Made by a program: the position numbers and the translations under genes
Shown: positions 36,951 to 61,698 of the stretch, one piece after another
How positions within the stretch are numbered: position 1 is the first letter of the stretch
Layout: each line of letters opens with the position of its first letter
NCBI GenBank assembly: GCA_024682395.1
Contig: JAIKZH010000081.1
Coordinates: 6,623 to 70,622 of the forward strand
Length of the DNA stretch: 64,000 nt
Direction of reading: 5' to 3'
Source: Bacteroidaceae bacterium
GTDB taxonomy: Bacteria; Bacteroidota; Bacteroidia; Bacteroidales; Bacteroidaceae
Notes under the pieces: model-generated
What the model was told of the DNA's origin: nothing
The model's database searches: none
The model's input: only the letters and a program-made list of their open reading frames with translations

Positions 36951-37337
36951 TATGTAAACTGTCTTGTTTTATTATTGAATGCAAAGATAATGATTATTTA
37001 ATATTTTTCAAACAACTTTTGTGCTTTTTATCTGTAACCAGAACCATTGGTAATAGGAATCTGTATAAACGAAGATTTTTTTACATTCTTCCGTTATAAA
37101 ATTCGGTGATTAATAATCTTTTTTTACCTTTGCCTGCGATTTGCCATAGCATAATCGGATCAGTCTTTATGGTGCAGAATTTATTTCTATCCTAAAAGTC
37201 TTTTTGTAGCTTAATCGTGTCTTTCATTATAGTAGAAACTCATGAAAAAGTGCAATACCAATGATTAGTTATTTAGTAATATATCCTAATATAAGAATGA
37301 TAAATTATTTATTAATTAAAAACCTCAGTAAATTTTT

Positions 37338-44004: not shown

Positions 44005-44012
44005 CAAAGATA
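44005..44012 (-). promoter_or_regulatory. -7 box (TATCTTTG on minus strand) upstream of the tonB-like/ruvB operon
   Basis: The plus strand reads CAAAGATA, 114 nt upstream of the ATG at 43891. Confidence 0.35.
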
Positions 44013-44158
44013 CAATAAATTTCATATAACCTCAAAAAAACTAAAAATTCTTTTATGTCGAATCCCTTTTTTGCCTTTACAGTTTTTGAATTCAATAAAT
44101 CTTTTCATTTGTATCTTTTCTTTTTGTTGAAAAAAACTGAAATGTCAAAAAAACTCAT

Positions 44159-47174: not shown

Positions 47175-48740
47175 ATGAATACTGATAATTACAATGCAAC
47201 CTTATTATGGGTTGATGACGAAATAGAGTTGCTTAAAGCTTATATCATTTTCCTTGAGAAAAAAGGATATAAGGTGGTAACTGCTACAAATGGACGCGAT
47301 GCTGTGGATATGTGCAGCGAGCAAACATTTGATATCATATTCTTGGATGAAAATATGCCAGGTATCAGTGGATTGGAAACTCTTTCACTTATAAAAGAGA
47401 TTAATTCAACTATACCTATTGTGATGGTTACAAAGAGCGAAGAGGAGAATATTATGAATCAGGCAATAGGACAGAAAATTGCTGATTATCTCATAAAACC
47501 CGTGAATCCATCGCAAATTCTGCTAACTTTGAAGAAACATCTTCATAAACGTGAGATAGAGAGTGAGGTTACTGATACCTCATACCGTCAGAACTTCCAG
47601 AAGATAGCCTTACAGATAAATGATTCATATACACTTGATGACTGGAAGGATGTGTATAGGAAACTTGTGTTTTGGGAATTGGAACTCAGTACAACCAATA
47701 GTGAGATGAGTGAGATGCTCAAAATGCAGAAAGCTGAGGCTAATCAAGAATTTGCTAAGTTTATTCGTAAAAACTATATGAAATGGATGGACGAACCTGA
47801 TAATCGTCCGTTAATGAGTCCTGATATATTTAAAAATAAGGTTTTCCCTCTTCTTAACAAAGGCGAAAAGGTCTTTGTGATTGTATTTGATAATTTCAGA
47901 TATGATCAATGGAGAGTGTTAAGTCAGGATCTTGCCGATGACTTCGTCTTTGAGGAAGATTTATATTTGAGCATCTTACCAACTGCCACTCAATATGCGC
48001 GTAATGCTATATTCGCAGGATTGATGCCAACTCAGATTGCTCAATATTTTCCTGAATTATGGGTAGATGAGAACGAGGAGGAAGGTAAAAACTTAAACGA
48101 GGCTCCACTTATACAAACCCATTTGGAACGATTCCGCCGACATGAGAAATTCTCATATAATAAGGTTAATCATGCAAGTGATAGCGAAAAACTATTGAGC
48201 CAGTTTAATTCTTTATTACATAACGAACTAAATGTTATTGTGATAAACTTTATCGATATGCTCTCGCACGCAAGAACCGAGTCGAAGATGGTGCGTGAAT
48301 TGGCTTCCGATGAAACTGCATATCGAAGTATCACACAGTCGTGGTTCCGTCATTCTCCTATCCGAGAACTCTTCGATTTGCTCGCACAAACCGATGCACA
48401 TATTATAATAACTACAGATCATGGTTCGATAAAAGTAAATAACCCTATAAAGGTTATAGGCGACAAAAATACCAATACAAACCTAAGATATAAATTGGGT
48501 AAGAACCTTGGATATAATCCAAAAGAAATATTTGAGATACGTGATCCTAAACGTGCTTCACTTCCTTCTCCTAATATCAGTACAACCTATATTTTTGCGC
48601 AGAAGGACGATTTCTTCGCTTATCCCAACAACTACAACTATTATGCAAATTATTATAAGAATACATTTCAACATGGCGGAGTAAGTATGGAAGAAATGCT
48701 GATACCGCTTGTTTCACTTCAAAGTAAAAAAAGAAAATGA
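47175..48740 (+). CDS. porX: T9SS response regulator PorX (receiver domain plus PglZ/alkaline-phosphatase-like domain)
   Basis: Receiver [11 protein letters not shown]...[11 protein letters not shown]...VTKSEE. The ~350-aa C-terminal part is PglZ-like ([15 protein letters not shown]). It sits directly after porW. Confidence 0.8.
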
Positions 48741-49150
48741 TAATACAGATTGATTCAGTAGAATACATTCATGAAGCCGCCAAACAATTTATTAATGAAA
48801 TGGGGGCTAATAAATTGTTTGCTTTCTATGGTAAAATGGGGGTAGGTAAAACAACCTTCATCAAAGCAATATGTGAGGAACTTGGAGTAACCGATGTTAT
48901 TAATTCCCCTACATTTGCTATTGTTAATGAATACCTCGATAAGGATAAACAACAAATATACCATTTCGACTTCTATAGAATAAAGAAGCCAGAAGAGGTT
49001 CTGGATATCGGTTTCGAAGACTATATCTATAGTGACTGCCTTTGTTTTATGGAATGGCCTGAATTGATAGGCGATTATCTTCCTGACGAGACTGTCCGTG
49101 TGTATATAGAGGAATTAGATAACGGAACACGTGTTGTCAGAACAGAGTAA
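48737..49150 (+). CDS. tsaE: tRNA threonylcarbamoyladenosine biosynthesis ATPase TsaE
   Basis: Walker [29 protein letters not shown]. Its ATGA start overlaps the porX stop. Confidence 0.85.
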
Positions 49151-52930: not shown

Positions 52931-53053
52931 CGACGAATCTACTTAATATACGCTTGTTATTTGATTTGTTGCTGATAGTTAATGCTATAAGCGCAAATCA
53001 AGTATAATTAACGTTAATTTCACGCGTGCGTGCGCAAAAAGAAAGTGAATCCT

Positions 53054-53084
53054 TTTGCGATTACCCCATATTTGTATATCTTTG
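53054..53084 (+). promoter_or_regulatory. Bacteroides-type promoter (-33 TTTG at 53054-53057; -7 TATCTTTG at 53077-53084) for the five-gene cluster
   Basis: Both consensus elements are present with 19-nt spacing. The ATG at 53104 follows 19 nt after the -7 box. Confidence 0.5.
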
Positions 53085-53103
53085 CATCGTAAATTGCGTT
53101 ATT

Positions 53104-54657
53104 ATGCTCAAATTGGTATTTAGTAAAATAGTAGAAAATATTTTCGGACACAACACAGCATTGTGTTTGCTTTTATGCATAGTGGCATTAAGTTTTACAG
53201 ATTGTCGCAATAGTCGTCAGCGTGATTTTGACCGTCTGTTGGTTTCTGTAGCAGCAGAAGATGGTGTCGTCGATTATAATGACTGGCAGAAGATTGTTGA
53301 GTATATCTCATCCAATGCAGCGCATTTCAGTCAGTTCATGAAGGACGATGAGATTGATGCAGAATTGGTAAAACAATATATCAGCGATATGTTTGCTAAT
53401 CGTCGTCCGTCTAAAGACATTCTTTTTGACGGGGCAGGAACAGGAAAGGAGTTCTTGACGGTGAAATTATATCTTGAACGTAGTGGAAGTATGATTCCAT
53501 ATGATTCCTCAAAAGGACGAGGCGAATTCAAGAATTCTATAGTGTCAATCTTAAATAGTCTTCCAGGTAATCCTGAAGATAACAGCATCTTCATCGTAAA
53601 CGACGGAGTATTTAAGTATCCAAAGACTTTTCGTGATTTTATTACTGACAAGAATATCTTTGAAACCACAAAAGGTATAGGAAATGCCAGTTATACAGAT
53701 TTCGGATGTATTCTCGACTCTGTGCTTAACAGAAACGGAGCCGATGACATCAGTATTCTTGTTAGTGATATGATATATTCCACTGCCGATGTTGGAGTGG
53801 TTAATACTGATAAAATATTCAGTGAGGCAAAATCTACTACTCAAGCCATCATGAAGAATATGGCATCAAATAAATCAATATTGTTTGTAAAACTCAATTC
53901 TTCATTCATCGGAACATATTATCCATACAACCAACCTCATGGTGTGCAGTATAATGGTATGCGTCCGTATTACATCATGATTGTAGGTGATAATGCCAAT
54001 ATAAAACGACTTGCAAGTAGTGATAAATACAAACGATTCAGTCAGTTAACAGAACTCAAAGGATTTGAACATATGACCTTATTCACTCATGACAAGTGTT
54101 ATAGCCCATATTATTCAGTTCTTTTGTCTGATAACGATATGATAGGTCGAATGAGAGCAGATCATAAGAAAAATGATGGTGATGCTATTCATGCCTTAAC
54201 CAGTGTAACTCCAGACAACGACTCAGGCGTTTTACAAATTGTATTATCTGTGAACTTCAACGATATGTTTGTTGAGGAAAGTTATCTCACAGATATCAAT
54301 AATTATGTTATAGAATCGGATGACCCAGTTGAGATTACATCAATAAAAGCTATCGAGAAGTCTGATATCACACAGAACAACCGCGAAGCGATGGAAAAGG
54401 CAACACATCGAGTTGTACTTAAATTGAAGAAATTCAGTCATGACCAGAAAGTAACTATCCGACTTAAGAATAAATTCCAACAATGGATTGTTGATTCAAA
54501 CAGTGATGATGACTCGCATCCTGATGCATCTGACAGACATTTTGCATCTACGACCTTCTCTTTACAACCTCTTATGGAGGGTATATACGATAGTTATGCA
54601 GCATTATCTAACGAAAGCCTTGATTATTTCGTGATAGATCTGTTTTTAGATAAATAA
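53104..54657 (+). CDS. Signal-anchored (possibly lipidated) vWA-like domain protein, cluster gene 1
   Basis: Hydrophobic N-terminus ALCLLLCIVALSFTDC. MIDAS-like series at vWA-typical spacing: LYLERSGSM (nt 53476-53493; E replaces the usual D), then ~70 aa to GNASYTDFG, then ~25 aa to ISILVSDMIY. The ~280-aa C-terminal region is unassigned. The listed start at 53026 spans the promoter, so I prefer ATG 53104. Confidence 0.55.
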   Translation: MLKLVFSKIVENIFGHNTALCLLLCIVALSFTDCRNSRQRDFDRLLVSVAAEDGVVDYNDWQKIVEYISSNAAHFSQFMKDDEIDAELVKQYISDMFANRRPSKDILFDGAGTGKEFLTVKLYLERSGSMIPYDSSKGRGEFKNSIVSILNSLPGNPEDNSIFIVNDGVFKYPKTFRDFITDKNIFETTKGIGNASYTDFGCILDSVLNRNGADDISILVSDMIYSTADVGVVNTDKIFSEAKSTTQAIMKNMASNKSILFVKLNSSFIGTYYPYNQPHGVQYNGMRPYYIMIVGDNANIKRLASSDKYKRFSQLTELKGFEHMTLFTHDKCYSPYYSVLLSDNDMIGRMRADHKKNDGDAIHALTSVTPDNDSGVLQIVLSVNFNDMFVEESYLTDINNYVIESDDPVEITSIKAIEKSDITQNNREAMEKATHRVVLKLKKFSHDQKVTIRLKNKFQQWIVDSNSDDDSHPDASDRHFASTTFSLQPLMEGIYDSYAALSNESLDYFVIDLFLDK

Positions 54658-54703
54658 ATACATTTGTTCAAACAAAAAATAACAATTTATATATAAAAGT
54701 TAA

Positions 54704-55150
54704 ATGATTAAAAATTTTATTTTTCTTGCATTAGGAATTATCATAACAGTACTTTATGTTATATTTTCTACTGAGATATACGAGGCAATGAATCTTGATC
54801 CTGCATTTATGGACGAGATGTATAATGCTCATTTATATTCCACAATTGCTTCTACAATTGCTATAACAGTATGGATTGTTGCAGCCGTTTATTACTATCT
54901 TATCAATTCTGTAAGATTCAGCAGATGGTATCACTGGCTTATTATGCTTCTGTTGGCAATATTGGTGGCACCAAGTATCTCGATATATTTCCCTTTCTCA
55001 GAGTTTAGCGAGGAAGGCAAAGACTATCTTATGCAATTGATACAATTCAATTTGATAAATATTGGAATAACTATATTATTGTTTATTATCGTTTCGTTCT
55101 CAGTGAGATGGTGGAGCACAAACTGCCGACACACTCCTATTCCGGAATAG
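54704..55150 (+). CDS. Four-TM integral membrane protein, cluster gene 2
   Basis: Four hydrophobic helices (FIFLALGIIITVLYVIF; STIASTIAITVWIVAAVYYYLI; WLIMLLLAILVAPSISIYF; LINIGITILLFIIVSFSV). No motif recognised. Confidence 0.6.
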   Translation: MIKNFIFLALGIIITVLYVIFSTEIYEAMNLDPAFMDEMYNAHLYSTIASTIAITVWIVAAVYYYLINSVRFSRWYHWLIMLLLAILVAPSISIYFPFSEFSEEGKDYLMQLIQFNLINIGITILLFIIVSFSVRWWSTNCRHTPIPE

Positions 55151-55260
55151 AGACATAATATGGTTTTGATACTTAAGAATTGAAGAGAGAATAAAGAAAA
55201 TGATATGCGTACTAGAATCGATTTTGGTTTCTGGATGTTAATAAAAATATAATACAGGAG

Positions 55261-56787
55261 ATGAATCTATTTTTGTTTTTAGTTGGAGGTACTGGAGCAC
55301 GAGTTCTCAAACCGCTGGTAATGCAGTTAGCAGCAGGAGTACGTCCATGTGATGAGAATACAGGCGCACCTATCGCAGATTTACAGATTATTCCTATAAT
55401 AATGGATCCACATCGAGCAAATGAGGATCTCAAACGTACTGAAGATCTGTTGCGATGGTATAAAGAGATACGTCGAAGTCTATATGGTGAACGTACAGAT
55501 GTAGATCATGGATTTTTTAATGTGAAGATATCCACATTGGCAGATCTTATTCCTCAAAAAGGATTGAACAATTCATTTGTATTCAATTTGGGTAGTATTG
55601 CCGAGAAAGAATTCAAGGATTATATAGCATACGACACTCTTAATGATGCAAATCAGGCTCTTTGCAGTATGCTCTTCAGTAAGGATCAACTGAATACAAA
55701 GATGGATATCGGTTTTGTGGGCAGTCCTAACATCGGCGCAGTGGCCTTGAATCAGTTCAAAGATTCTGTGGAATTCCGTGAATTTGCTAATATATACAAA
55801 CGTGAAGACCGTATCTTTGTGGTAAGTTCAATTTTTGGTGGTACAGGCGCAGCGGGATTCCCTATCATTGTAAAGAACATACGTGATGCTGCAAGTAATC
55901 CGATGCTTACAAACAGAGGCGATTTGAGAGATGCAAAGATTGGCGCTCTTACAGTATTGCCATATTTTAATGTGGCAAGTGATGAAAATAGCCCTATTAC
56001 ACGTGCCGACTTTGTGATAAAGACGAAGTCTGCATTATATTACTATCAAGAGAATCTTACAGGTCCAAAGAGTTTGGCACTTAACGCATGTTATTATTTG
56101 GGCGATGAAGAGGCTTCTGTTCCTTATCCAAACGATCCAGGTGGTGACGGACAGCGCAATGATGCCCATTTCATCGAATATGTTGGTGCTTTGTCTATAT
56201 TGGATTTTATCTCTATACCAAACGATAAATTGATGACTATTGACGGTAAAGCACAAAATCCGCTGTTCCGTGAATATGGATTGAAATACGATGAGAAGAA
56301 CCTTACTTTAATGACATTTGGACAGAAAACACGTAATCTTGTCAATCAGTCATTAGTGAAGTTTCATCTGCTTTATATGTATCTGACAAATCAGTTTATG
56401 AAGGATATCGGACGAGGCTATACTTTGGATGCACCTGAGTTACGCTCTTCGTTTACATCTACCTCATTCTATCGTACATTGATAAATGAATTCTTCCATT
56501 CTTACTATGATTGGTTGATGGAGATGCAAAGTAACAATCGTTCGTTTGCTCCATTCAATATATTGACACTGAAACTGGAGAACTGTATAGTTGGTATTCC
56601 ACCTAAGAAAGGTCTTTTCAAAGGAGTTATTGATTACAAAACAGTTCTTTCTGCAATGAATGCAGAGTCAAAGAAAGCTACAACACAGTCGCGTTATTCG
56701 TCAAATCAACTTCCATTTAAACTGATGGATCTTTTCGATAGTGTTGCAGAGAAGATAATTGCAAAAAAGTTTAATTCAATCAAGTAA
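55261..56787 (+). CDS. Tubulin/FtsZ-superfamily-like GTPase (divergent; lacks a recognisable FtsZ C-terminal domain), cluster gene 3
   Basis: T1-like LFLVGGTGARV (G9-G12; nt 55285-55296). T3-like GFVGSPNIGAV (aa 151-161). T4 signature-like DRIFVVSSIFGGTGAAGFPII (GGTGAAG = aa 193-199, nt 55837-55857), then KIGALTVLPYF (aa 226-236), which mirrors E. coli FtsZ [31 protein letters not shown]. No signal peptide. Confidence 0.6.
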   Translation: MNLFLFLVGGTGARVLKPLVMQLAAGVRPCDENTGAPIADLQIIPIIMDPHRANEDLKRTEDLLRWYKEIRRSLYGERTDVDHGFFNVKISTLADLIPQKGLNNSFVFNLGSIAEKEFKDYIAYDTLNDANQALCSMLFSKDQLNTKMDIGFVGSPNIGAVALNQFKDSVEFREFANIYKREDRIFVVSSIFGGTGAAGFPIIVKNIRDAASNPMLTNRGDLRDAKIGALTVLPYFNVASDENSPITRADFVIKTKSALYYYQENLTGPKSLALNACYYLGDEEASVPYPNDPGGDGQRNDAHFIEYVGALSILDFISIPNDKLMTIDGKAQNPLFREYGLKYDEKNLTLMTFGQKTRNLVNQSLVKFHLLYMYLTNQFMKDIGRGYTLDAPELRSSFTSTSFYRTLINEFFHSYYDWLMEMQSNNRSFAPFNILTLKLENCIVGIPPKKGLFKGVIDYKTVLSAMNAESKKATTQSRYSSNQLPFKLMDLFDSVAEKIIAKKFNSIK

Positions 56788-56814
56788 ATCAAGACATTTG
56801 TTTCTAAATATAAA

Positions 56815-59800
56815 ATGAGTAAGGTACTATCATACAATAATAAAAGTAACGGTGAAGATTGGTTTGATATCACCCGCCAATATAGTAGGGATGAAATCGA
56901 TTCAATCACAGATTCTTCAGCTGGACTTACAGATAATCCACGTACAGCTATTCCAAGCCCGTTTGCACAGATGGATCTTGTGAAGAATGCTTTTCTTCGT
57001 CTTTCTTATAATGTGAATTTAAGAGGAAACCAACAGGATGAGAAACTTGTGTCGCAGGCTTTAGATATAGCACAGTTGTTCTTTAATATCAATGAATTGC
57101 GTGATAAAGTCAGGATTATAGAGTGGAATCGTTCTGTGAATCTTGAACAACTCAAGACTTCTCCAGAACATCGATTGTTAGGAGAAACACTGGATATGTA
57201 TCTTCGACAGGACAGCGAGGCTTATAACTTCAACCTAATGAATAAACTCTCGTTTATAGCATATAATAATCATGTATTAGGATGTACTTCACCAGCTTCG
57301 TTGTTTATGGCCTCACCAGATGCCACAGCAGGTGTATTTGATATTCCGATTGAACAAGGAATCAACTTGTTTGATCAATGGCGTCCTCTTTATAAACGTG
57401 AGCCTAAATTCGTTAAGTATATATATGCTCTTTTTACAGCATTCCCAATATTGAAACAACGTCTCGAAGCGGTAAATAAATATCTTATCACAAACTTCCT
57501 TATACTTAATCTCGATTTGCAGCGTGAGATTCTGCAAGAGATAGGTAATCCTCAGAGTATCAATGAGGATGAGACAGAAAAAGCTCGTAATTATCTTGAT
57601 ACCAATTACGAGACAACTGAGGAAGGTATGGAGGTTCTCGGTGTGCCTTTGTTCCAGAGCCGTACAGAAGATGTGATGGCAAATATAGCTAAGAGCGATT
57701 TTGTAATCAACCCAACACATAAGTTCGATGAGAATGAAAAACTGCCGTTAGTTCTTCAGAATAATCTAAATGCGCCAGTTACAGATCCGTTCAAATATAT
57801 CACTTATGATTGGGACGATTCAATAAAAATACGTCCAGAAGATTATGCCGTAAGTCCTGATAAACGTGTACTTCCTGCTACCACACATCAGTATCCATGG
57901 CTTACCGATGACGACTTTCTGCAACCATCACTTATCCGTCTTGATTTCCCTATCGATAAGGATTGTTTCTTCGACGGAAATCTGAAGATAAGTAATGGAG
58001 ATAATGACATTAAACATTATCTTTTGCCGTTGAAACCGCTGTTTTTCAAATATTTTGATACACGTGATTTATGGGGTACAATTGCAGGAAAACAACGTAT
58101 GGAGATACAAACATCACGTATCGGACAAAGTCGTATCGTGAAAGTAATCTTGAGAATTCCTGTTCAGAAACACGGAAAATATATAACATTGTCGCGTACA
58201 TATGTTGAATCAAAAGACGGACAACTCTTGTTCGCACCTGAAACAGGACAAGGTTCATTCGTCACCCTTTCATTTGCAATAGCAATATTCCCATTTGTCC
58301 GTACTGAAGGATACAACCAATACAAAGTACAGGTTGTTGACCGTGCGTTAGGACAATTTGAGAACTACAAGATAAAACTCGAATTCTATAAAGACGGATT
58401 TAATAAGCGTATTGACGATTCACAACTACAGAAATGTCGTGAGAGAAGTCTTAAGTCTCAGAAGATGGTAGGATCAAATTATTATAGTGTCAACACTGAT
58501 TTTGATTATACTAAGGTAGTTGTTGAGAATGAGGTCGGTGCTAAGTTTGGTGAAGGAATCATTTGTCCAAAATGGGAAAATGAAGTTCAAGGTGCCGATG
58601 CTTATACTTTTGCTGTTGACTTCGGTACAACAAATACTCATATTGAGGTTATGAAAGGTGACGGATCACCAGAGCCGTTGAAAATCGATCCTCAGCAACG
58701 TAGCCGATTGGTTGCAACTCTGTATAATGGTGAGAACTTGCTTTATGATGTTATCATCAAACAAGAGTTTGCGCCAAAAGTCATTGCTACTGATTATGGA
58801 TTCCCACAACGAACAGTATTGTCTGAATGTGAACGTGTTGATGCCGCAAATGTCGATGAAATCATAGCTTTGGGTGATGCAAATATACCGTTTATTTACG
58901 AGAAGGAATCTATTGGATATGGAAATAGAATAATTCCAAACTTGAAATGGTCGTCTGATATCTCCAATAGTAAACGCATCAGTTGTTATCTCACTGAGAT
59001 TGCTTTACTCATGCGCTCAAAAGTATTGTTGGAACAAGGCAATCTGAAAGAAACAAGACTGGTGTGGTTCTATCCTCTTAGTATGGAAACCGGTAAAATC
59101 AGTCAGTTGCGACAGATATGGGCTAAGACCTTCCAAAATGTATTCGGAATTCCTGTACGTGAAGGTATCAACCTGATTGAGATGCCTGAGTCGGTGGCAC
59201 CATATTATTATTATAAGAACTCATCACAGTTTAAAGGTGCGGCTTCTACCGTTGCCTCTATTGACATAGGTGGTGGCTCAAGTGATATTGTAGTATATCA
59301 ACGCGAAAATGAGTCTAAGATACCAAATGTGGTTACATCATTCCGTTTTGCAGCTAACACCCTCTTCGGAGATGCTTTCTCAGAGGTACCTCAAGGTAAT
59401 CATAATCCGATGCTTATAAAATATGTGGATTATTTCCGTATGTTGTTTAATAATGATGAGGATTTATATGGTGAGTTATTAGGTATATTGGATGATATAG
59501 TCGATAAAAAGAAATCAGAGGATATCAATGCCTTCTTGTTCTCTATAGAGTCCAACAAGGCTACAAAGGGTAACGATGTGTTCTCATATAATTTACGATT
59601 GAATCAGGATTCAATGCGTAAGATTATATTTGTGTATTTCTACGTCACATTGGTTTATTATGTAGCAAACCTTATGAAGTTCAAGGGACTTGACATGCCA
59701 CGTTGTATCATGTTCAGTGGTACTGGTTCGAAAGTTCTTAAGATTGTAGGAAGCAACCGCGAACTGAATAACCTTACACAGATTGTTATTGAACGTATTT

Positions 59801-60318
59801 ATGGTCAGGAGTACACTGGCGATGGCTTTTCTATCGTAATTGAAGAGAATGAGCCAAAACAGATTACTTGTCGTGGTGCATTGCTTCAAGTGAAATCGGA
59901 AATGGGCTGTAAGGCAATCAATGATATCAACAGTAAGATGGACGATTTCAAGGAACCATTGAAATCGAATTATTCGATGATTTCGAAACCAGTTCTTCAA
60001 TACAAAGATGTTACAGATGCAAATGTGGTGAACGAGATTATCCAGAAAGTTCGCGAATATAACAAATTCTTCATTCAGTTATGTGAAGACATACATGTTT
60101 CAGACAGATTCCTCGTAAGCGGAGAAGCATGGAGCATGTTTAAAGAGAATGTAAATAAAGATCTTGAACACCATTTCATACAAGGATGGAACTTCGTGAA
60201 TAAGAATCAGACAGTGGTAAACGAAACTGATCCAGTTCCTGATGCTTTGTTCTTCTATCCTATTATTGGCTCAATCAGAAATAACTTAATAGATAACATA
60301 AAAGAAAAAGACTTATGA
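56815..60318 (+). CDS. Large two-part protein: unassigned ~590-aa N-terminal region plus C-terminal Hsp70/actin-like (ASKHA) ATPase domain, cluster gene 4
   Basis: Phosphate-1 motif FAVDFGTTNTHIEV (D602; nt 58618-58638). Phosphate-2 motif VASIDIGGGSSDIVVY (D817; nt 59263-59286). Adenosine motif IMFSGTGSKVLKIVG (aa 965-979; nt 59707). Spacings of ~215 and ~150 aa resemble the DnaK NBD (~190 and ~140). No signal peptide or TM. Confidence 0.65.
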   Translation: MSKVLSYNNKSNGEDWFDITRQYSRDEIDSITDSSAGLTDNPRTAIPSPFAQMDLVKNAFLRLSYNVNLRGNQQDEKLVSQALDIAQLFFNINELRDKVRIIEWNRSVNLEQLKTSPEHRLLGETLDMYLRQDSEAYNFNLMNKLSFIAYNNHVLGCTSPASLFMASPDATAGVFDIPIEQGINLFDQWRPLYKREPKFVKYIYALFTAFPILKQRLEAVNKYLITNFLILNLDLQREILQEIGNPQSINEDETEKARNYLDTNYETTEEGMEVLGVPLFQSRTEDVMANIAKSDFVINPTHKFDENEKLPLVLQNNLNAPVTDPFKYITYDWDDSIKIRPEDYAVSPDKRVLPATTHQYPWLTDDDFLQPSLIRLDFPIDKDCFFDGNLKISNGDNDIKHYLLPLKPLFFKYFDTRDLWGTIAGKQRMEIQTSRIGQSRIVKVILRIPVQKHGKYITLSRTYVESKDGQLLFAPETGQGSFVTLSFAIAIFPFVRTEGYNQYKVQVVDRALGQFENYKIKLEFYKDGFNKRIDDSQLQKCRERSLKSQKMVGSNYYSVNTDFDYTKVVVENEVGAKFGEGIICPKWENEVQGADAYTFAVDFGTTNTHIEVMKGDGSPEPLKIDPQQRSRLVATLYNGENLLYDVIIKQEFAPKVIATDYGFPQRTVLSECERVDAANVDEIIALGDANIPFIYEKESIGYGNRIIPNLKWSSDISNSKRISCYLTEIALLMRSKVLLEQGNLKETRLVWFYPLSMETGKISQLRQIWAKTFQNVFGIPVREGINLIEMPESVAPYYYYKNSSQFKGAASTVASIDIGGGSSDIVVYQRENESKIPNVVTSFRFAANTLFGDAFSEVPQGNHNPMLIKYVDYFRMLFNNDEDLYGELLGILDDIVDKKKSEDINAFLFSIESNKATKGNDVFSYNLRLNQDSMRKIIFVYFYVTLVYYVANLMKFKGLDMPRCIMFSGTGSKVLKIVGSNRELNNLTQIVIERIYGQEYTGDGFSIVIEENEPKQITCRGALLQVKSEMGCKAINDINSKMDDFKEPLKSNYSMISKPVLQYKDVTDANVVNEIIQKVREYNKFFIQLCEDIHVSDRFLVSGEAWSMFKENVNKDLEHHFIQGWNFVNKNQTVVNETDPVPDALFFYPIIGSIRNNLIDNIKEKDL

Positions 60319-61586
60319 AAAAATTATTATTTTTAGCCATAGGCATGTGGTTTTTTGCCATTGGCTGCGTAAGTGCTCAGTCATTGGAACAAAAGAGAAT
60401 CTGTGCTCTCAAATGGACGCTTCAGCAAACCTTTTATAACAAAGCCGAAGGACAGCAATTGGCTAAGATGGATGTTACAGAGTTCAAATCTTTCGATGAA
60501 TTCAAGAAAAATGAACTTGTTAGCAAATTGATGAAAAAAGTCAGTGATAAAACTGATTTGAAACGTGTAAACTCAATCTTGAATGCTAAAAACGACGACG
60601 AATTGTCTTCAAGTGTTCCTTCTGGAGGAAAAAAAGAATATCAAGCCGATGTTGAGAAAATGAAGTCTCAAGCACCTGCTGCTCAAGAAGAAACTGAAGA
60701 AGAAACTCCTGCCGTTGAGGAGGTCGTGGAAGATACAGCTACTACAGCTTCTGTGACTCCTATTAAAGATGAAGAGAATAATAACGAGGAAGCAGAGAAC
60801 GATGCAACTGCAGAAGAAGATGAAGAAGCAACGGCAACTGAAGGTATTGGCCTTTGGGGTGTTGTTCTTATCTCGTCTCTTGTTTATGTTATACTCACAA
60901 TTTGTTTGCTTCTCTTCAAACGTTCACGTTCTGTAGGAAGATCTGGCGGTGACGACCAAGGCGTAAGTCTTGAACAATATCGTTCAGAACGTCTTCGTCT
61001 TATCGAAAGAATCAAGGCAATTGAAATTGAACTTGAAAGCAAGAAAGACAATAACAGCAAGCCTGTTAAGGAACAACCACAGCCTGCTGTTCAACAACCT
61101 GTTGCTAAGGAAAAAGAAGTTGTTGCTCCAGTTCCAACTCCAAAGAAAGAACCTGCAAAAGTAAATGTAGAGCAAACTCTTTTCTCTTCACCAACTAAGG
61201 ATGAAGCACCTTCTGCAGAGGTCACTCCAATCATAACTCCAACAGAAACTCCTTCTTCAATCAAACCACGTCACACCACATCTATCATGTTCTTCCCAGT
61301 ACCAGTAGATGGTGTGTTCTCAAACGGAACAGAAGAAATAGAGGTTGGTAAGTCTTTGTATATGTTGAAAACAACTGATGGTCAGAATGCAACATTTACA
61401 ATCCTCAACACACCAGAGGCTATTGCTACAGCACTCATATCTCTTTCACAGATGGTAAAACCTGTATGTAAAATTATCAATACAGTTACCAATCCATTAG
61501 AAATCGTGACAGAGGGTCCTGGTACAGCTGTACGTGAGGGTGATACATGGAAAATGGTGACAAAATCTGTTGTACGTCTGATTTAA
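60315..61586 (+). CDS. Bitopic membrane protein (signal peptide, periplasmic domain, acidic tract, TM, coiled coil, Pro-rich linker, small C-terminal domain), cluster gene 5
   Basis: Signal peptide MKKLLFLAIGMWFFAIGCVSA-QS, an E/D/T-rich tract (aa ~125-175), a TM IGLWGVVLISSLVYVILTICLLLF followed by KRSRSVGRSGG (positive-inside), heptad-like LEQYRSERLRLIERIKAIEIELE, and a P/K/E/V-rich linker. Its ATGA start overlaps the gene 4 stop. Confidence 0.6.
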   Translation: MKKLLFLAIGMWFFAIGCVSAQSLEQKRICALKWTLQQTFYNKAEGQQLAKMDVTEFKSFDEFKKNELVSKLMKKVSDKTDLKRVNSILNAKNDDELSSSVPSGGKKEYQADVEKMKSQAPAAQEETEEETPAVEEVVEDTATTASVTPIKDEENNNEEAENDATAEEDEEATATEGIGLWGVVLISSLVYVILTICLLLFKRSRSVGRSGGDDQGVSLEQYRSERLRLIERIKAIEIELESKKDNNSKPVKEQPQPAVQQPVAKEKEVVAPVPTPKKEPAKVNVEQTLFSSPTKDEAPSAEVTPIITPTETPSSIKPRHTTSIMFFPVPVDGVFSNGTEEIEVGKSLYMLKTTDGQNATFTILNTPEAIATALISLSQMVKPVCKIINTVTNPLEIVTEGPGTAVREGDTWKMVTKSVVRLI

Positions 61587-61591
61587 AACAA

Positions 61592-61619
61592 AAAGCCAAA
61601 GGGTTTAACCTCTGGCTTT
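61592..61619. terminator. Hairpin shared by the end of the five-gene cluster (+) and the 3' end of tRNA-Arg (-)
   Basis: AAAGCCAAAGG-gtttaa-CCTCTGGCTTT (one mismatch). On the minus strand it is followed by TTTTGTTTTAAAT. Confidence 0.6.
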
Positions 61620-61626
61620 CTGATCG

Positions 61627-61698
61627 TACCTCCACTGAGAATCGAACTCAGATCTAATCTTTAGGAGAGATTTGTTCTATCCATTGAACTATGAAGGC
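61627..61698 (-). tRNA. tRNA-Arg (anticodon CCT)
   Basis: Hand-folded cloverleaf from the reverse complement: GCCTTCA-TA-GTTC-AATGGATA-GAAC-A-AATCT-CTCCTAA-AGATT-AGAT-CTGAG-TTCGATT-CTCAG-TGGAGGT-A. The acceptor stem has 7 bp (two G-U), the T-loop is TTCGATT, and the anticodon loop is CT-CCT-AA. CCA is not encoded. Confidence 0.85.

Follow-up and report, generated by a model that had tools for sequence, protein, structure and literature searches.

A cluster of five genes (g1 to g5, all on the + strand) lies in a 64,000-nucleotide (nt) stretch of contig JAIKZH010000081.1 from a Prevotella-like Bacteroidaceae bacterium of the rumen; this whole stretch is called the window throughout. Gene g3 encodes a predicted divergent tubulin/FtsZ-fold GTPase and g4 a predicted Hsp70/actin-fold (ASKHA) ATPase, and the other three genes encode envelope proteins. 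The five genes form one operon, and their order is co-conserved far beyond chance. The cluster is related, as a short form, to the FtsZl1/Tubulin_2-vWA(-MotB) systems known from prediction, and is neither a typical member of them nor categorically new. A role in conflict or envelope stress, in which envelope damage or an invader is sensed, is tentatively favored, at somewhat less than even confidence. The genes, taken from the list of open reading frames (ORFs), are as follows, with lengths in amino acids (aa).

53104–54657, + strand: g1, 517 aa counted from the ATG
54704–55150, + strand: g2, 148 aa
55261–56787, + strand: g3, 508 aa
56815–60318, + strand: g4, 1167 aa
60315–61586, + strand: g5, 423 aa, its start overlapping the g4 stop (ATGA)

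The preliminary description of this DNA had reported five same-strand genes running from a promoter to a hairpin. The ORFs at 53104–61586 agree with that layout, and their coordinates give intergenic gaps of exactly 46, 110, 27 and -4 nt from g1 to g5.

Relatives of the cluster are numerous. Searches with g3 returned 1674 cluster representatives at E ≤ 1e-3 in a 50%-identity library and at least 576 matching stretches across the GTDB species-representative genomes. Synteny was followed in 160 loci, composed of the best 80 genome loci and 80 distant metagenome loci. In the former, from Prevotellaceae and Muribaculaceae with g3 identities of 47–99%, the order g1-g2-g3-g4 is constant and a gene for the g5 C-domain is usually next. 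The metagenome scan was seeded with distant members, one of them from the flavobacterium Christiangramia portivictoriae, and all 80 distant loci, on Flavobacteriia/Chitinophagia-like contigs, carry g1-g2-g3-g4(-g5). Genes are absent from these loci only at contig ends, and the order is held down to about 35% identity. Across Bacteroidota the five genes behave as a unit, the outcome for which the preliminary description had proposed to look. Named relatives are found in Hoylesella, Leyella, Prevotella koreensis, P. melaninogenica, Segatella copri and Chitinophaga caeni, and no Bacteroides or Phocaeicola occurs among the best 80 genome matches. The window is 99% identical to a metagenome-assembled genome from water-buffalo rumen that bears the label Bacteroidaceae bacterium RGIG8301. 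Five loci with clusters of Prevotella or Muribaculaceae type (L030, L036, L046, L079 and L080) bear the titles Eggerthellaceae, Flexilinea, Paratractidigestivibacter, Agathobacter rectalis and Wujia chipingensis. All five are contigs of one 'cleanbin' series and are probably mislabeled or contaminated bins, not instances of horizontal transfer.

Two separate metagenome contigs carry g3 and g4 joined in frame. The fusion ORFs, at L110 4847–9631 (+ strand, 1594 aa) and L159 9992–14689 (+ strand, 1565 aa), are matched nearly end to end by the g3 and g4 profiles. These natural fusions argue that g3 and g4 work together physically.

The assignment of g3 combines motifs, a structure model and the family matches of its relatives. 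Its own Pfam matches lie under the gathering cut-offs, for Tubulin (PF00091) at E 0.0017 and 19.1 bits against a cut-off of 33, and for Tubulin_2 (PF13809) at E 0.0067 and 16.2 bits against 27. In a diverse sample of relatives, 42 of 43 match Tubulin_2 (best 8.3e-8) and Tubulin (best 1.4e-5). FtsZ chains were matched weakly, around the T4 loop, in a search of PDB sequences (E 0.003–0.03). The AlphaFold2 model of g3 has a predicted local distance difference test score (pLDDT) of 81 and a predicted template modeling score of 0.85, and almost all of its top 50 Foldseek matches in PDB are FtsZ, CetZ, tubulin or TubZ. A T1 loop, VGGTGAR (residues 8–14), is present in 147 of 162 homologues, and a T4 loop, FGGTGAAG (residues 192–199), in all 162; the latter is a variant, with GGTGAAG instead of GGGTGSG, where the superfamily signature is GGGTG[ST]G. 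Just before a helix lies N300-D-A-H-x-x-E306, a candidate T7-like catalytic loop that is found in 140 of the 162 homologues and also in Picosynechococcus. The family ranges in length from 460 to 530 aa, and after residue 355 the model holds short helices only and no long coiled coil. The tubulin/FtsZ-like character first read from the g3 sequence is thereby borne out, as a predicted divergent member of this fold.

For g4 the structure model is the main source of evidence, since no match was found in Pfam or NCBIfam (E ≤ 1) or among PDB sequences, even with the family profile. The AlphaFold2 model (pLDDT 75.5) gave 272 Foldseek matches in PDB at E ≤ 1e-3. At the top are Hsp70 nucleotide-binding domains, namely Hsc70 (6b1m, 4.9e-7), BiP and DnaK, with a probability of 1.00 and TM-scores of 0.43–0.48 by target length; the actin-like filament protein BeeR and Arp3 are also among the matches. 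The protein can be divided into a conserved N-terminal peptide, AIPSPFAQMDL (~45–55), an alpha-plus-beta N-terminal half of unassigned fold (~590 residues), the ASKHA domain (~590–1030) and a helical C-terminus. The motifs D602-F-G-T-T, D817-I-G-G-G-S and F967-S-G-T-G-S-K are invariant in the family alignment A2. Among 140 full-length homologues, the phosphate-1 motif DFGTT is kept in all, the phosphate-2 motif DIGGGS in 139 and the adenosine pattern in 99. By its model and its phosphate motifs, g4 is predicted to have the Hsp70/actin ATPase fold that the preliminary description had suggested. A canonical Hsp70/DnaK was considered and rejected: g4 has no Pfam HSP70 match and no detectable Hsp70 substrate-binding domain, and no J-protein (DnaJ) or GrpE gene is present in the cluster as a partner. 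The nucleotide-binding motifs of g3 and g4 are near-invariant in 140–162 homologues, one cyanobacterial homologue included, and with these active-site motifs intact both proteins look catalytically competent.

Residues 1–47 and 640–715 of g4 have pLDDT below 50 and are strongly conserved in sequence. Near the N-terminus the conserved segment is PRTAIPSPFAQMDLVKNAF, with IPSPWARP as its cyanobacterial counterpart, and within the ASKHA domain it is NIPFIYEKESIGYGNRIIPNLKW; both may take part in interactions and become folded in doing so. A 1131-aa g4 homologue of Segatella copri (MEE1345796.1) is named 'cell division protein FtsA' at NCBI, a name that is probably over-specific and derived from the ASKHA fold.

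Envelope proteins and downstream genes

Hydropathy of g1 displays an N-terminal signal only, and nearly all of its homologues have a lipobox (..SCG, ..ACG or ..GCG). Three elements are invariant in the family: E125-R-S-G-S-M...YD, T198-D-F about 73 residues on, and S-D222-x-I-Y-S about 24 further. The spacing is that of the metal ion-dependent adhesion site (MIDAS) of vWA domains, with Glu replacing the first Asp. No vWA match was obtained with Pfam among 27 and then 35 diverse homologues, nor any PDB match with the family profile. In hhalign comparisons with a small vWA alignment, ExSGSM and SD were co-linear with DxSxS and TDG, weakly so (E 0.0016 and 0.012; probability 16% and 4%), the target being five flanking-gene sequences of which two were Pfam-confirmed as BatA/BatB-like, two were weak and one was unmatched. 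For the vWA-like label given to g1 in the preliminary description there are the invariant MIDAS-like motif and the weak profile alignments, while the fold itself could not be confirmed by the Pfam and PDB searches. Because of this, g1 is best called a putative periplasmic MIDAS-motif lipoprotein, possibly of vWA fold. Small proteins of 227–239 aa with a canonical DxSGSM motif adjoin some loci of Muribaculaceae type, at L047 9572–10255 (+), L080 5266–5970 (-) and L083 5251–5970 (-). Two of them have a weak, sub-threshold match to Pfam VWA_2, and the L047 copy has no Pfam match.

The g2 protein has four transmembrane helices by hydropathy and is 48% identical to a Prevotella homologue. At the extreme C-terminus lies the peptide RWWS(T/S)NCRHTPIPE, which hardly varies in Bacteroidales; distant loci have a looser form, K-W/F-x-S...P-F. 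The tail is placed in the cytoplasm because of N-terminal lysines, and we infer that it serves as a cytoplasmic docking peptide. In g5, a signal peptide is followed by an acidic periplasmic segment, a transmembrane helix (183–201), a cytoplasmic coiled coil, a Pro/Lys-rich linker and a conserved C-domain (~320–423). Conservation is limited to the C-terminal ~100 aa, which are 43% identical (1e-32) to a 185-aa Prevotella protein. The N-terminal part differs among lineages, and in most Prevotella the counterpart is a cytoplasmic coiled-coil protein of ~185 aa without a periplasmic half. Hydropathy agrees with the earlier reading of g2 as a protein with four transmembrane helices and of g5 as bitopic.

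Most relatives carry more than these five genes. When the flanking ORFs of all loci were clustered, consistent same-strand genes were found downstream. In about 49 related loci, comprising distant ones and some of Prevotella/Segatella, genes for a ~531-aa and a ~217-aa protein lie directly downstream; most distant relatives have such a pair. The ~531-aa protein matches Pfam MotA_ExbB in 8 of 14 sampled cases (best 1.4e-6), and several match PADLOC ZorA (best 6e-13); it has a coiled-coil region and an extra predicted C-terminal transmembrane segment. The ~217-aa protein matches ZorB1 in all 14 sampled (best 2e-17), MotB_plug in ten and OmpA in seven, and the aspartate of FWxSYSDLMT, which corresponds to the proton-binding Asp of MotB, is present in all. 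A Trypsin_2 or retropepsin-like protease usually comes after this stator pair. Instances of these downstream genes are at L138 11630–13225 and 13222–13830, L100 15685–17241 and 17245–17898, and L085 11474–13737. Prevotellaceae and Muribaculaceae instead have one to several zinc-ribbon membrane proteins downstream, composed of an N-terminal ribbon of Zn_ribbon_4 type, a low-complexity linker and a transmembrane helix (for instance L001 15589–16395; L021 8170–9000; L057 16239–16721). Accessory genes differ among lineages in this way, and two different architectures occur inside Prevotella/Segatella. The window and its two closest relatives (L004 and L005) hold g1–g5 only, without stator, protease or zinc-ribbon genes, and the window cluster is a reduced form.

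Transcription signals, surroundings and mobility

The following features border the cluster.

53054–53084, + strand: Bacteroidetes-type promoter motif, TTTG (-33), N19, TAtcTTTG (-7)
61589–61622: stable hairpin between g5 and the convergent tRNA-Arg, folding free energy -14.6 kcal/mol, z = -3.7
61626–61698: tRNA-Arg(CCT), convergent to the cluster, from Rfam

The promoter motif ends 20 nt before the g1 ATG, inside the 173-nt gap between dnaE and g1. The listed GTG start of g1 at 53026 sits upstream of this motif, and the ATG at 53104 was used instead. TTTG-N19-21-TAnnTTTG has three matches in the 64 kb on both strands against 1.44 expected by chance, and three or more were reached in 16 of 100 shuffles of the window. 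The match count alone is weak evidence; it is the position upstream of g1 that makes the promoter call credible. The other two exact matches are at 36982–37012 (-) and 44005–44036 (-). A sigma-70-style scan of the window was uninformative, with 45 sites against 47.5 expected. The 110-nt gap between g2 and g3 has no second TAnnTTTG, and an AGGAG ribosome-binding site is located just before the ATG.

The hairpin was called as a minus-strand terminator, in which 14 pairs are followed by TTTTTGTTTT; on the + strand side there is only TTTCTG. Because its strong T-run is on the minus strand, it serves primarily to end transcription of the convergent tRNA-Arg(CCT); transcription of g1–g5 probably ends there too, which would make the terminator bidirectional. 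The tRNA was the sole structured RNA in an Rfam scan of the region.

Annotation of the neighbors agrees with the earlier statement that the flanks (dnaE, tRNA-Arg and others) are housekeeping; they comprise a PorX-like regulator, TsaE, DnaE, tRNA-Arg, DUF4254 and a heptosyltransferase. The guanine-plus-cytosine (GC) content is 37.3% for the cluster and 37.2% for the window. The PorX-like response regulator (receiver and PglZ domain, 521 aa; 47175–49150 region) overlaps the TsaE start by 4 nt, directly upstream of dnaE.

Beyond Bacteroidota, cyanobacterial plasmids carry the core of the system in the same order, with a four-transmembrane-helix protein, homologues of g3 and g4 (the latter ~1100 aa) and bitopic coiled-coil lipoproteins. 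These loci are on the mobilizable plasmid Cy782204 of Gloeothece verrucosa (L164, 8505–16788) and on one of Picosynechococcus sp. PCC 73109 (L166, 7204–16208), and no g1 homologue was detected in them. The g3 homologue there bears the PGAP name 'tubulin-like doman-containing protein'. A megablast of the cluster against plasmids gave no match; at the protein level, the plasmid matches were a 1.77-Mb replicon of Prevotella and the cyanobacterial plasmids. No match to g3 was found in 50,697 phage records. Eleven IMG/VR contigs (L167–L177) hold the full module, most with stator genes, and their flanks have only weak matches, to unannotated fecal 'Bacteriophage sp.' fragments. These contigs are probably host DNA.

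Relation to described systems

Nothing above threshold was obtained for g1–g5 with PADLOC, NCBIfam and Pfam, PADLOC giving no match at E ≤ 1, and the literature searched contained no description of the operon. These searches agree with the statement in the preliminary description that no characterized bacterial system is known to combine these five components.

The nearest predicted systems are those of FtsZl1. Makarova and Koonin (2010) described FtsZl1 as a protein of ~1000 aa (900–1200) in which an FtsZ-like domain precedes an extended coiled coil and a helical C-terminal domain; its operons also encode vWA proteins, OmpA/MotB-like proteins and uncharacterized membrane proteins, and a membrane-remodeling role was proposed (PMC2875224). 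For instance, Anabaena Ava_1847–1850 encode a vWA protein, FtsZl1, a 524-aa membrane protein 'B7' and a COG1360 MotB, and amb2957–2961 of M. magneticum encode a vWA protein, FtsZl1, two further vWA proteins and a 1626-aa 'DnaK'; the FtsZl1 of Bacteroides caccae has 913 aa and other neighbors than g3 (PMC2875224). The Tubulin_2 proteins were still uncharacterized outliers in a 2023 survey of the superfamily (PMC9871819). Both kinds of cluster place a tubulin/FtsZ-fold GTPase lacking the C-terminal domain of FtsZ or tubulin beside several membrane proteins and a secreted or membrane protein that is of vWA type in FtsZl1 systems and possibly so in g1. The cyanobacterial B7 and MotB/OmpA partners mirror the ZorA/ZorB-like pair of the extended Bacteroidota loci, the M. 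magneticum neighborhood likewise holds a giant 'DnaK', and experimental characterization exists for neither FtsZl1 nor the g1–g5 cluster. With 508 aa, g3 has no coiled coil or long helical C-terminal domain and stays below the Tubulin_2 threshold, and the obligatory partner of the cluster is the 1167-aa Hsp70/actin-fold g4, sometimes fused to g3. The fixed five-gene architecture of Bacteroidota is absent from PMC2875224, and the window has no MotA-/MotB-like ORF, unlike the ~49 related loci. FtsZl2 is proteobacterial, ~720–735 aa long and without conserved gene neighbors (PMC2875224); membership was rejected in view of the 508 aa of g3, its Bacteroidota and Cyanobacteria hosts and its strictly conserved neighbors. 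The caution in the preliminary description that the cluster might belong to FtsZl1 or FtsZl2 was justified, as the cluster is a short-form relative of FtsZl1 systems, not a typical FtsZl1, and FtsZl2 is excluded.

Kaur, Burroughs, Iyer and Aravind (2020) read tubulin/vWA and HSP70 neighborhoods as DO-GTPase/GAP1 conflict systems; the DO-GTPase/GAP1-N2 systems are predicted to lie near the membrane and to involve NTP-dependent multimeric assembly (PMC7159879). They occur in Firmicutes, Actinobacteria, Planctomycetes and Chloroflexi, and their tubulin and HSP70 themes were reported as non-overlapping (PMC7159879). The cluster shares with them a tubulin-superfamily protein, an extracytoplasmic component that in the cluster is possibly of vWA type, transmembrane components and, in some versions of those systems, an HSP70-family protein. 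It differs in that the tubulin-like and Hsp70-like proteins are always paired and the hosts are unicellular Bacteroidota. No Walker A/P-loop is present in any of g1–g5, and no GTPase family or Pfam FNIII match was found. Since there is no P-loop GTPase, the cluster is not a member of the DO-GTPase/GAP1 class, and its relation to the tubulin/HSP70 conflict systems of PMC7159879 is thematic. The Hsp70-like context of CoCoNuT was also rejected, as McrBC is missing.

Zorya consists of a ZorA5B2 proton-driven motor and soluble effectors (Hu et al. 2024/2025, PMC11946911). On profile matches, it is the characterized system whose ZorAB motor seems most to resemble the stator genes of the relatives, where a MotA/ExbB-type coiled-coil protein and a MotB-type protein with channel Asp and OmpA part have ZorA and ZorB as their best matches. 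The logic is comparable, in that a peptidoglycan-anchored stator would be coupled to cytoplasmic partners. The partners, however, are a tubulin-like GTPase and an Hsp70-like ATPase and not nucleases, and the ZorA-like protein has the extra C-terminal transmembrane segment. No ZorC/D, ZorE or ZorF/G was detected in g1–g5 (PADLOC, E ≤ 1), and the tested downstream partners of relatives match only ZorA/ZorB.

Folds and motifs are shared by g3 and g4 with the cytomotive proteins FtsZ/FtsA, TubZ, PhuZ, ParM, MreB and BeeR and with DnaK, at sequence identities of 9–15%. A tubulin-fold and an ASKHA-fold protein tethered to the membrane as a pair recall FtsZ-FtsA in particular. Nevertheless, FtsZ_C, Tubulin_C, the Hsp70 substrate-binding domain and a TubR/ParR adaptor are all missing, the context of the cluster is neither cell division nor plasmid partition, and FtsA has a third of the size of g4.

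Possible roles of the cluster

A scheme can be proposed in which the operon products form an envelope-spanning complex, with g1 in the periplasm bearing the metal-site (MIDAS-like) motif. At the inner membrane g3 and g4 would be held by the C-terminal peptide of g2 and the C-domain of g5, and the GTPase and the ATPase would act as a physical pair in the cytoplasm. The sensor of a periplasmic or envelope event would be g1, together in most distant relatives with a peptidoglycan-bound, proton-driven stator. The signal would then cross the membrane and lead to nucleotide-dependent assembly or remodeling by g3–g4, a response that would resemble that of Zorya and of the tubulin/HSP70/vWA conflict systems known from prediction. 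From the window version, the stator genes and the accessory genes for a protease or zinc-ribbon protein would have been lost. We infer in this scheme the formation of a complex with g2 and g5, the direction of signaling, polymerization and the biological role of the cluster.

A conflict or envelope-stress role is tentatively preferred because of the ZorAB-like partner, the lineage-specific accessory genes, the carriage on cyanobacterial plasmids and the two Prevotella/Segatella architectures. Several observations weigh against it. The cluster has no nuclease, toxin or pore former as a typical defense effector, and none of g1–g5 was matched by PADLOC. Five genes whose content and order are kept so strictly across several orders suit a cell-biological machine better than a conflict system, which typically evolves fast. 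For g1 the vWA fold lacks confirmation, and for g3 the Foldseek scores are weak, with E from 0.013, TM-scores of 0.24–0.40 and a probability of up to 0.99. The stator on which the analogy with Zorya is built is absent from the window, where no ORF matches hidden Markov models built from the ZorA-/ZorB-like genes of relatives, and its greater likeness to ZorAB than to generic MotAB/ExbBD is putative, coming from PADLOC and Pfam profile matches. The window locus itself has native GC and housekeeping neighbors and no marks of a mobile element. A related possibility, to which a somewhat smaller chance is given, is that the cluster is a reduced form of an undescribed machine, wide in Bacteroidota and on cyanobacterial plasmids, in which a ZorAB-like stator and the MIDAS lipoprotein would control a coupled g3–g4 engine.

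Alternatively, the cluster could be a constitutive membrane-remodeling or cytoskeletal machine, in which g3, perhaps together with g4, forms membrane-tethered filaments that shape the envelope in vesicle formation, growth or the positioning of complexes. Stators of the MotAB family also drive housekeeping machines such as Tol-Pal, TonB and GldLM, so that a stator is in keeping with this role as well. Gene content and order are strict from Prevotellaceae to contigs of Flavobacteriia/Chitinophagia type, the neighborhood is housekeeping and the GC native. The conserved nucleotide motifs and T7-like NDAHxxE are compatible with polymerization-coupled hydrolysis, BeeR and Arp3 are among the structural matches of g4, and remodeling was the original proposal of Makarova and Koonin for FtsZl1 systems (PMC2875224). 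A constitutive machine is harder to reconcile with a distribution that is patchy among families (with neither Bacteroides nor Phocaeicola in the 80 best genome matches listed), a plasmid-borne core in cyanobacteria, stator, protease and zinc-ribbon genes that vary by lineage, paralogous architectures inside one genus, and a g4 that is nearest to Hsp70 nucleotide-binding domains and not to filament-forming actins. On balance this role is considered rather unlikely, although it comes close behind the conflict or envelope-stress role because the five genes are strictly conserved, their surroundings are housekeeping and no classic effector is present.

A dedicated chaperone or assembly device is improbable. 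In it g4, regulated by g3, would fold, insert or export an envelope client such as g1, in the manner of MoxR-vWA pairs. It would suit the Hsp70 nucleotide-binding domains that are the best structural matches of g4, the constant first position of g1 in the operon, and the classic pairing of chaperone-like ATPases with vWA/MIDAS proteins (PMC7159879). However, Pfam and NCBIfam revealed neither a substrate-binding domain of Hsp70 nor a J-domain or GrpE partner, g1 is in the periplasm and g4 in the cytoplasm while the cluster encodes no translocase, versions in cyanobacteria have no detectable g1 homologue, and the g3–g4 fusion points to a joint nucleoside triphosphatase (NTPase) engine and not to a chaperone and its client. 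A further reading, of negligible likelihood, is that hypothetical genes happen to lie in a row on one strand and do not form a functional unit, or that the folds are artefacts of weak matches. It could appeal to the family-library matches of the window proteins, which are all below curated thresholds, and to the weak Foldseek E-values of g3. It is effectively refuted by the synteny and fusion data, namely the identical gene order in 160 independent loci to about 35% identity and the two natural g3–g4 fusions; the tubulin models matching 42 of 43 relatives, the 272 Foldseek matches of g4 at E ≤ 1e-3 and the invariant NTPase motifs speak against it too.

The FtsZl1/Tubulin_2 systems were predicted in 2010 and are still without an experimental function in the literature searched. 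With its five fixed genes, the Bacteroidota version may surpass all other forms of this class in compactness and regularity. The g3–g4 fusions give direct genomic evidence for a partnership between a tubulin fold and an Hsp70 fold, to which a conserved membrane-anchor peptide is added. The cluster is abundant in Prevotella and Segatella, dominant bacteria of the gut, the mouth and the rumen for which genetic tools are emerging, and the ZorAB-like stators of relatives provide a testable hypothesis of how an envelope signal reaches cytoplasmic NTPases. If the cluster serves in defense or envelope stress, it would represent a new effector logic in which proteins of cytoskeletal type assemble. Should it be housekeeping instead, it would be an unrecognized cytoskeletal element of a major phylum. 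If the g3–g4 engine is controlled by a stator, it would form a new cytomotive or immune class that unites two classic filament and chaperone folds.

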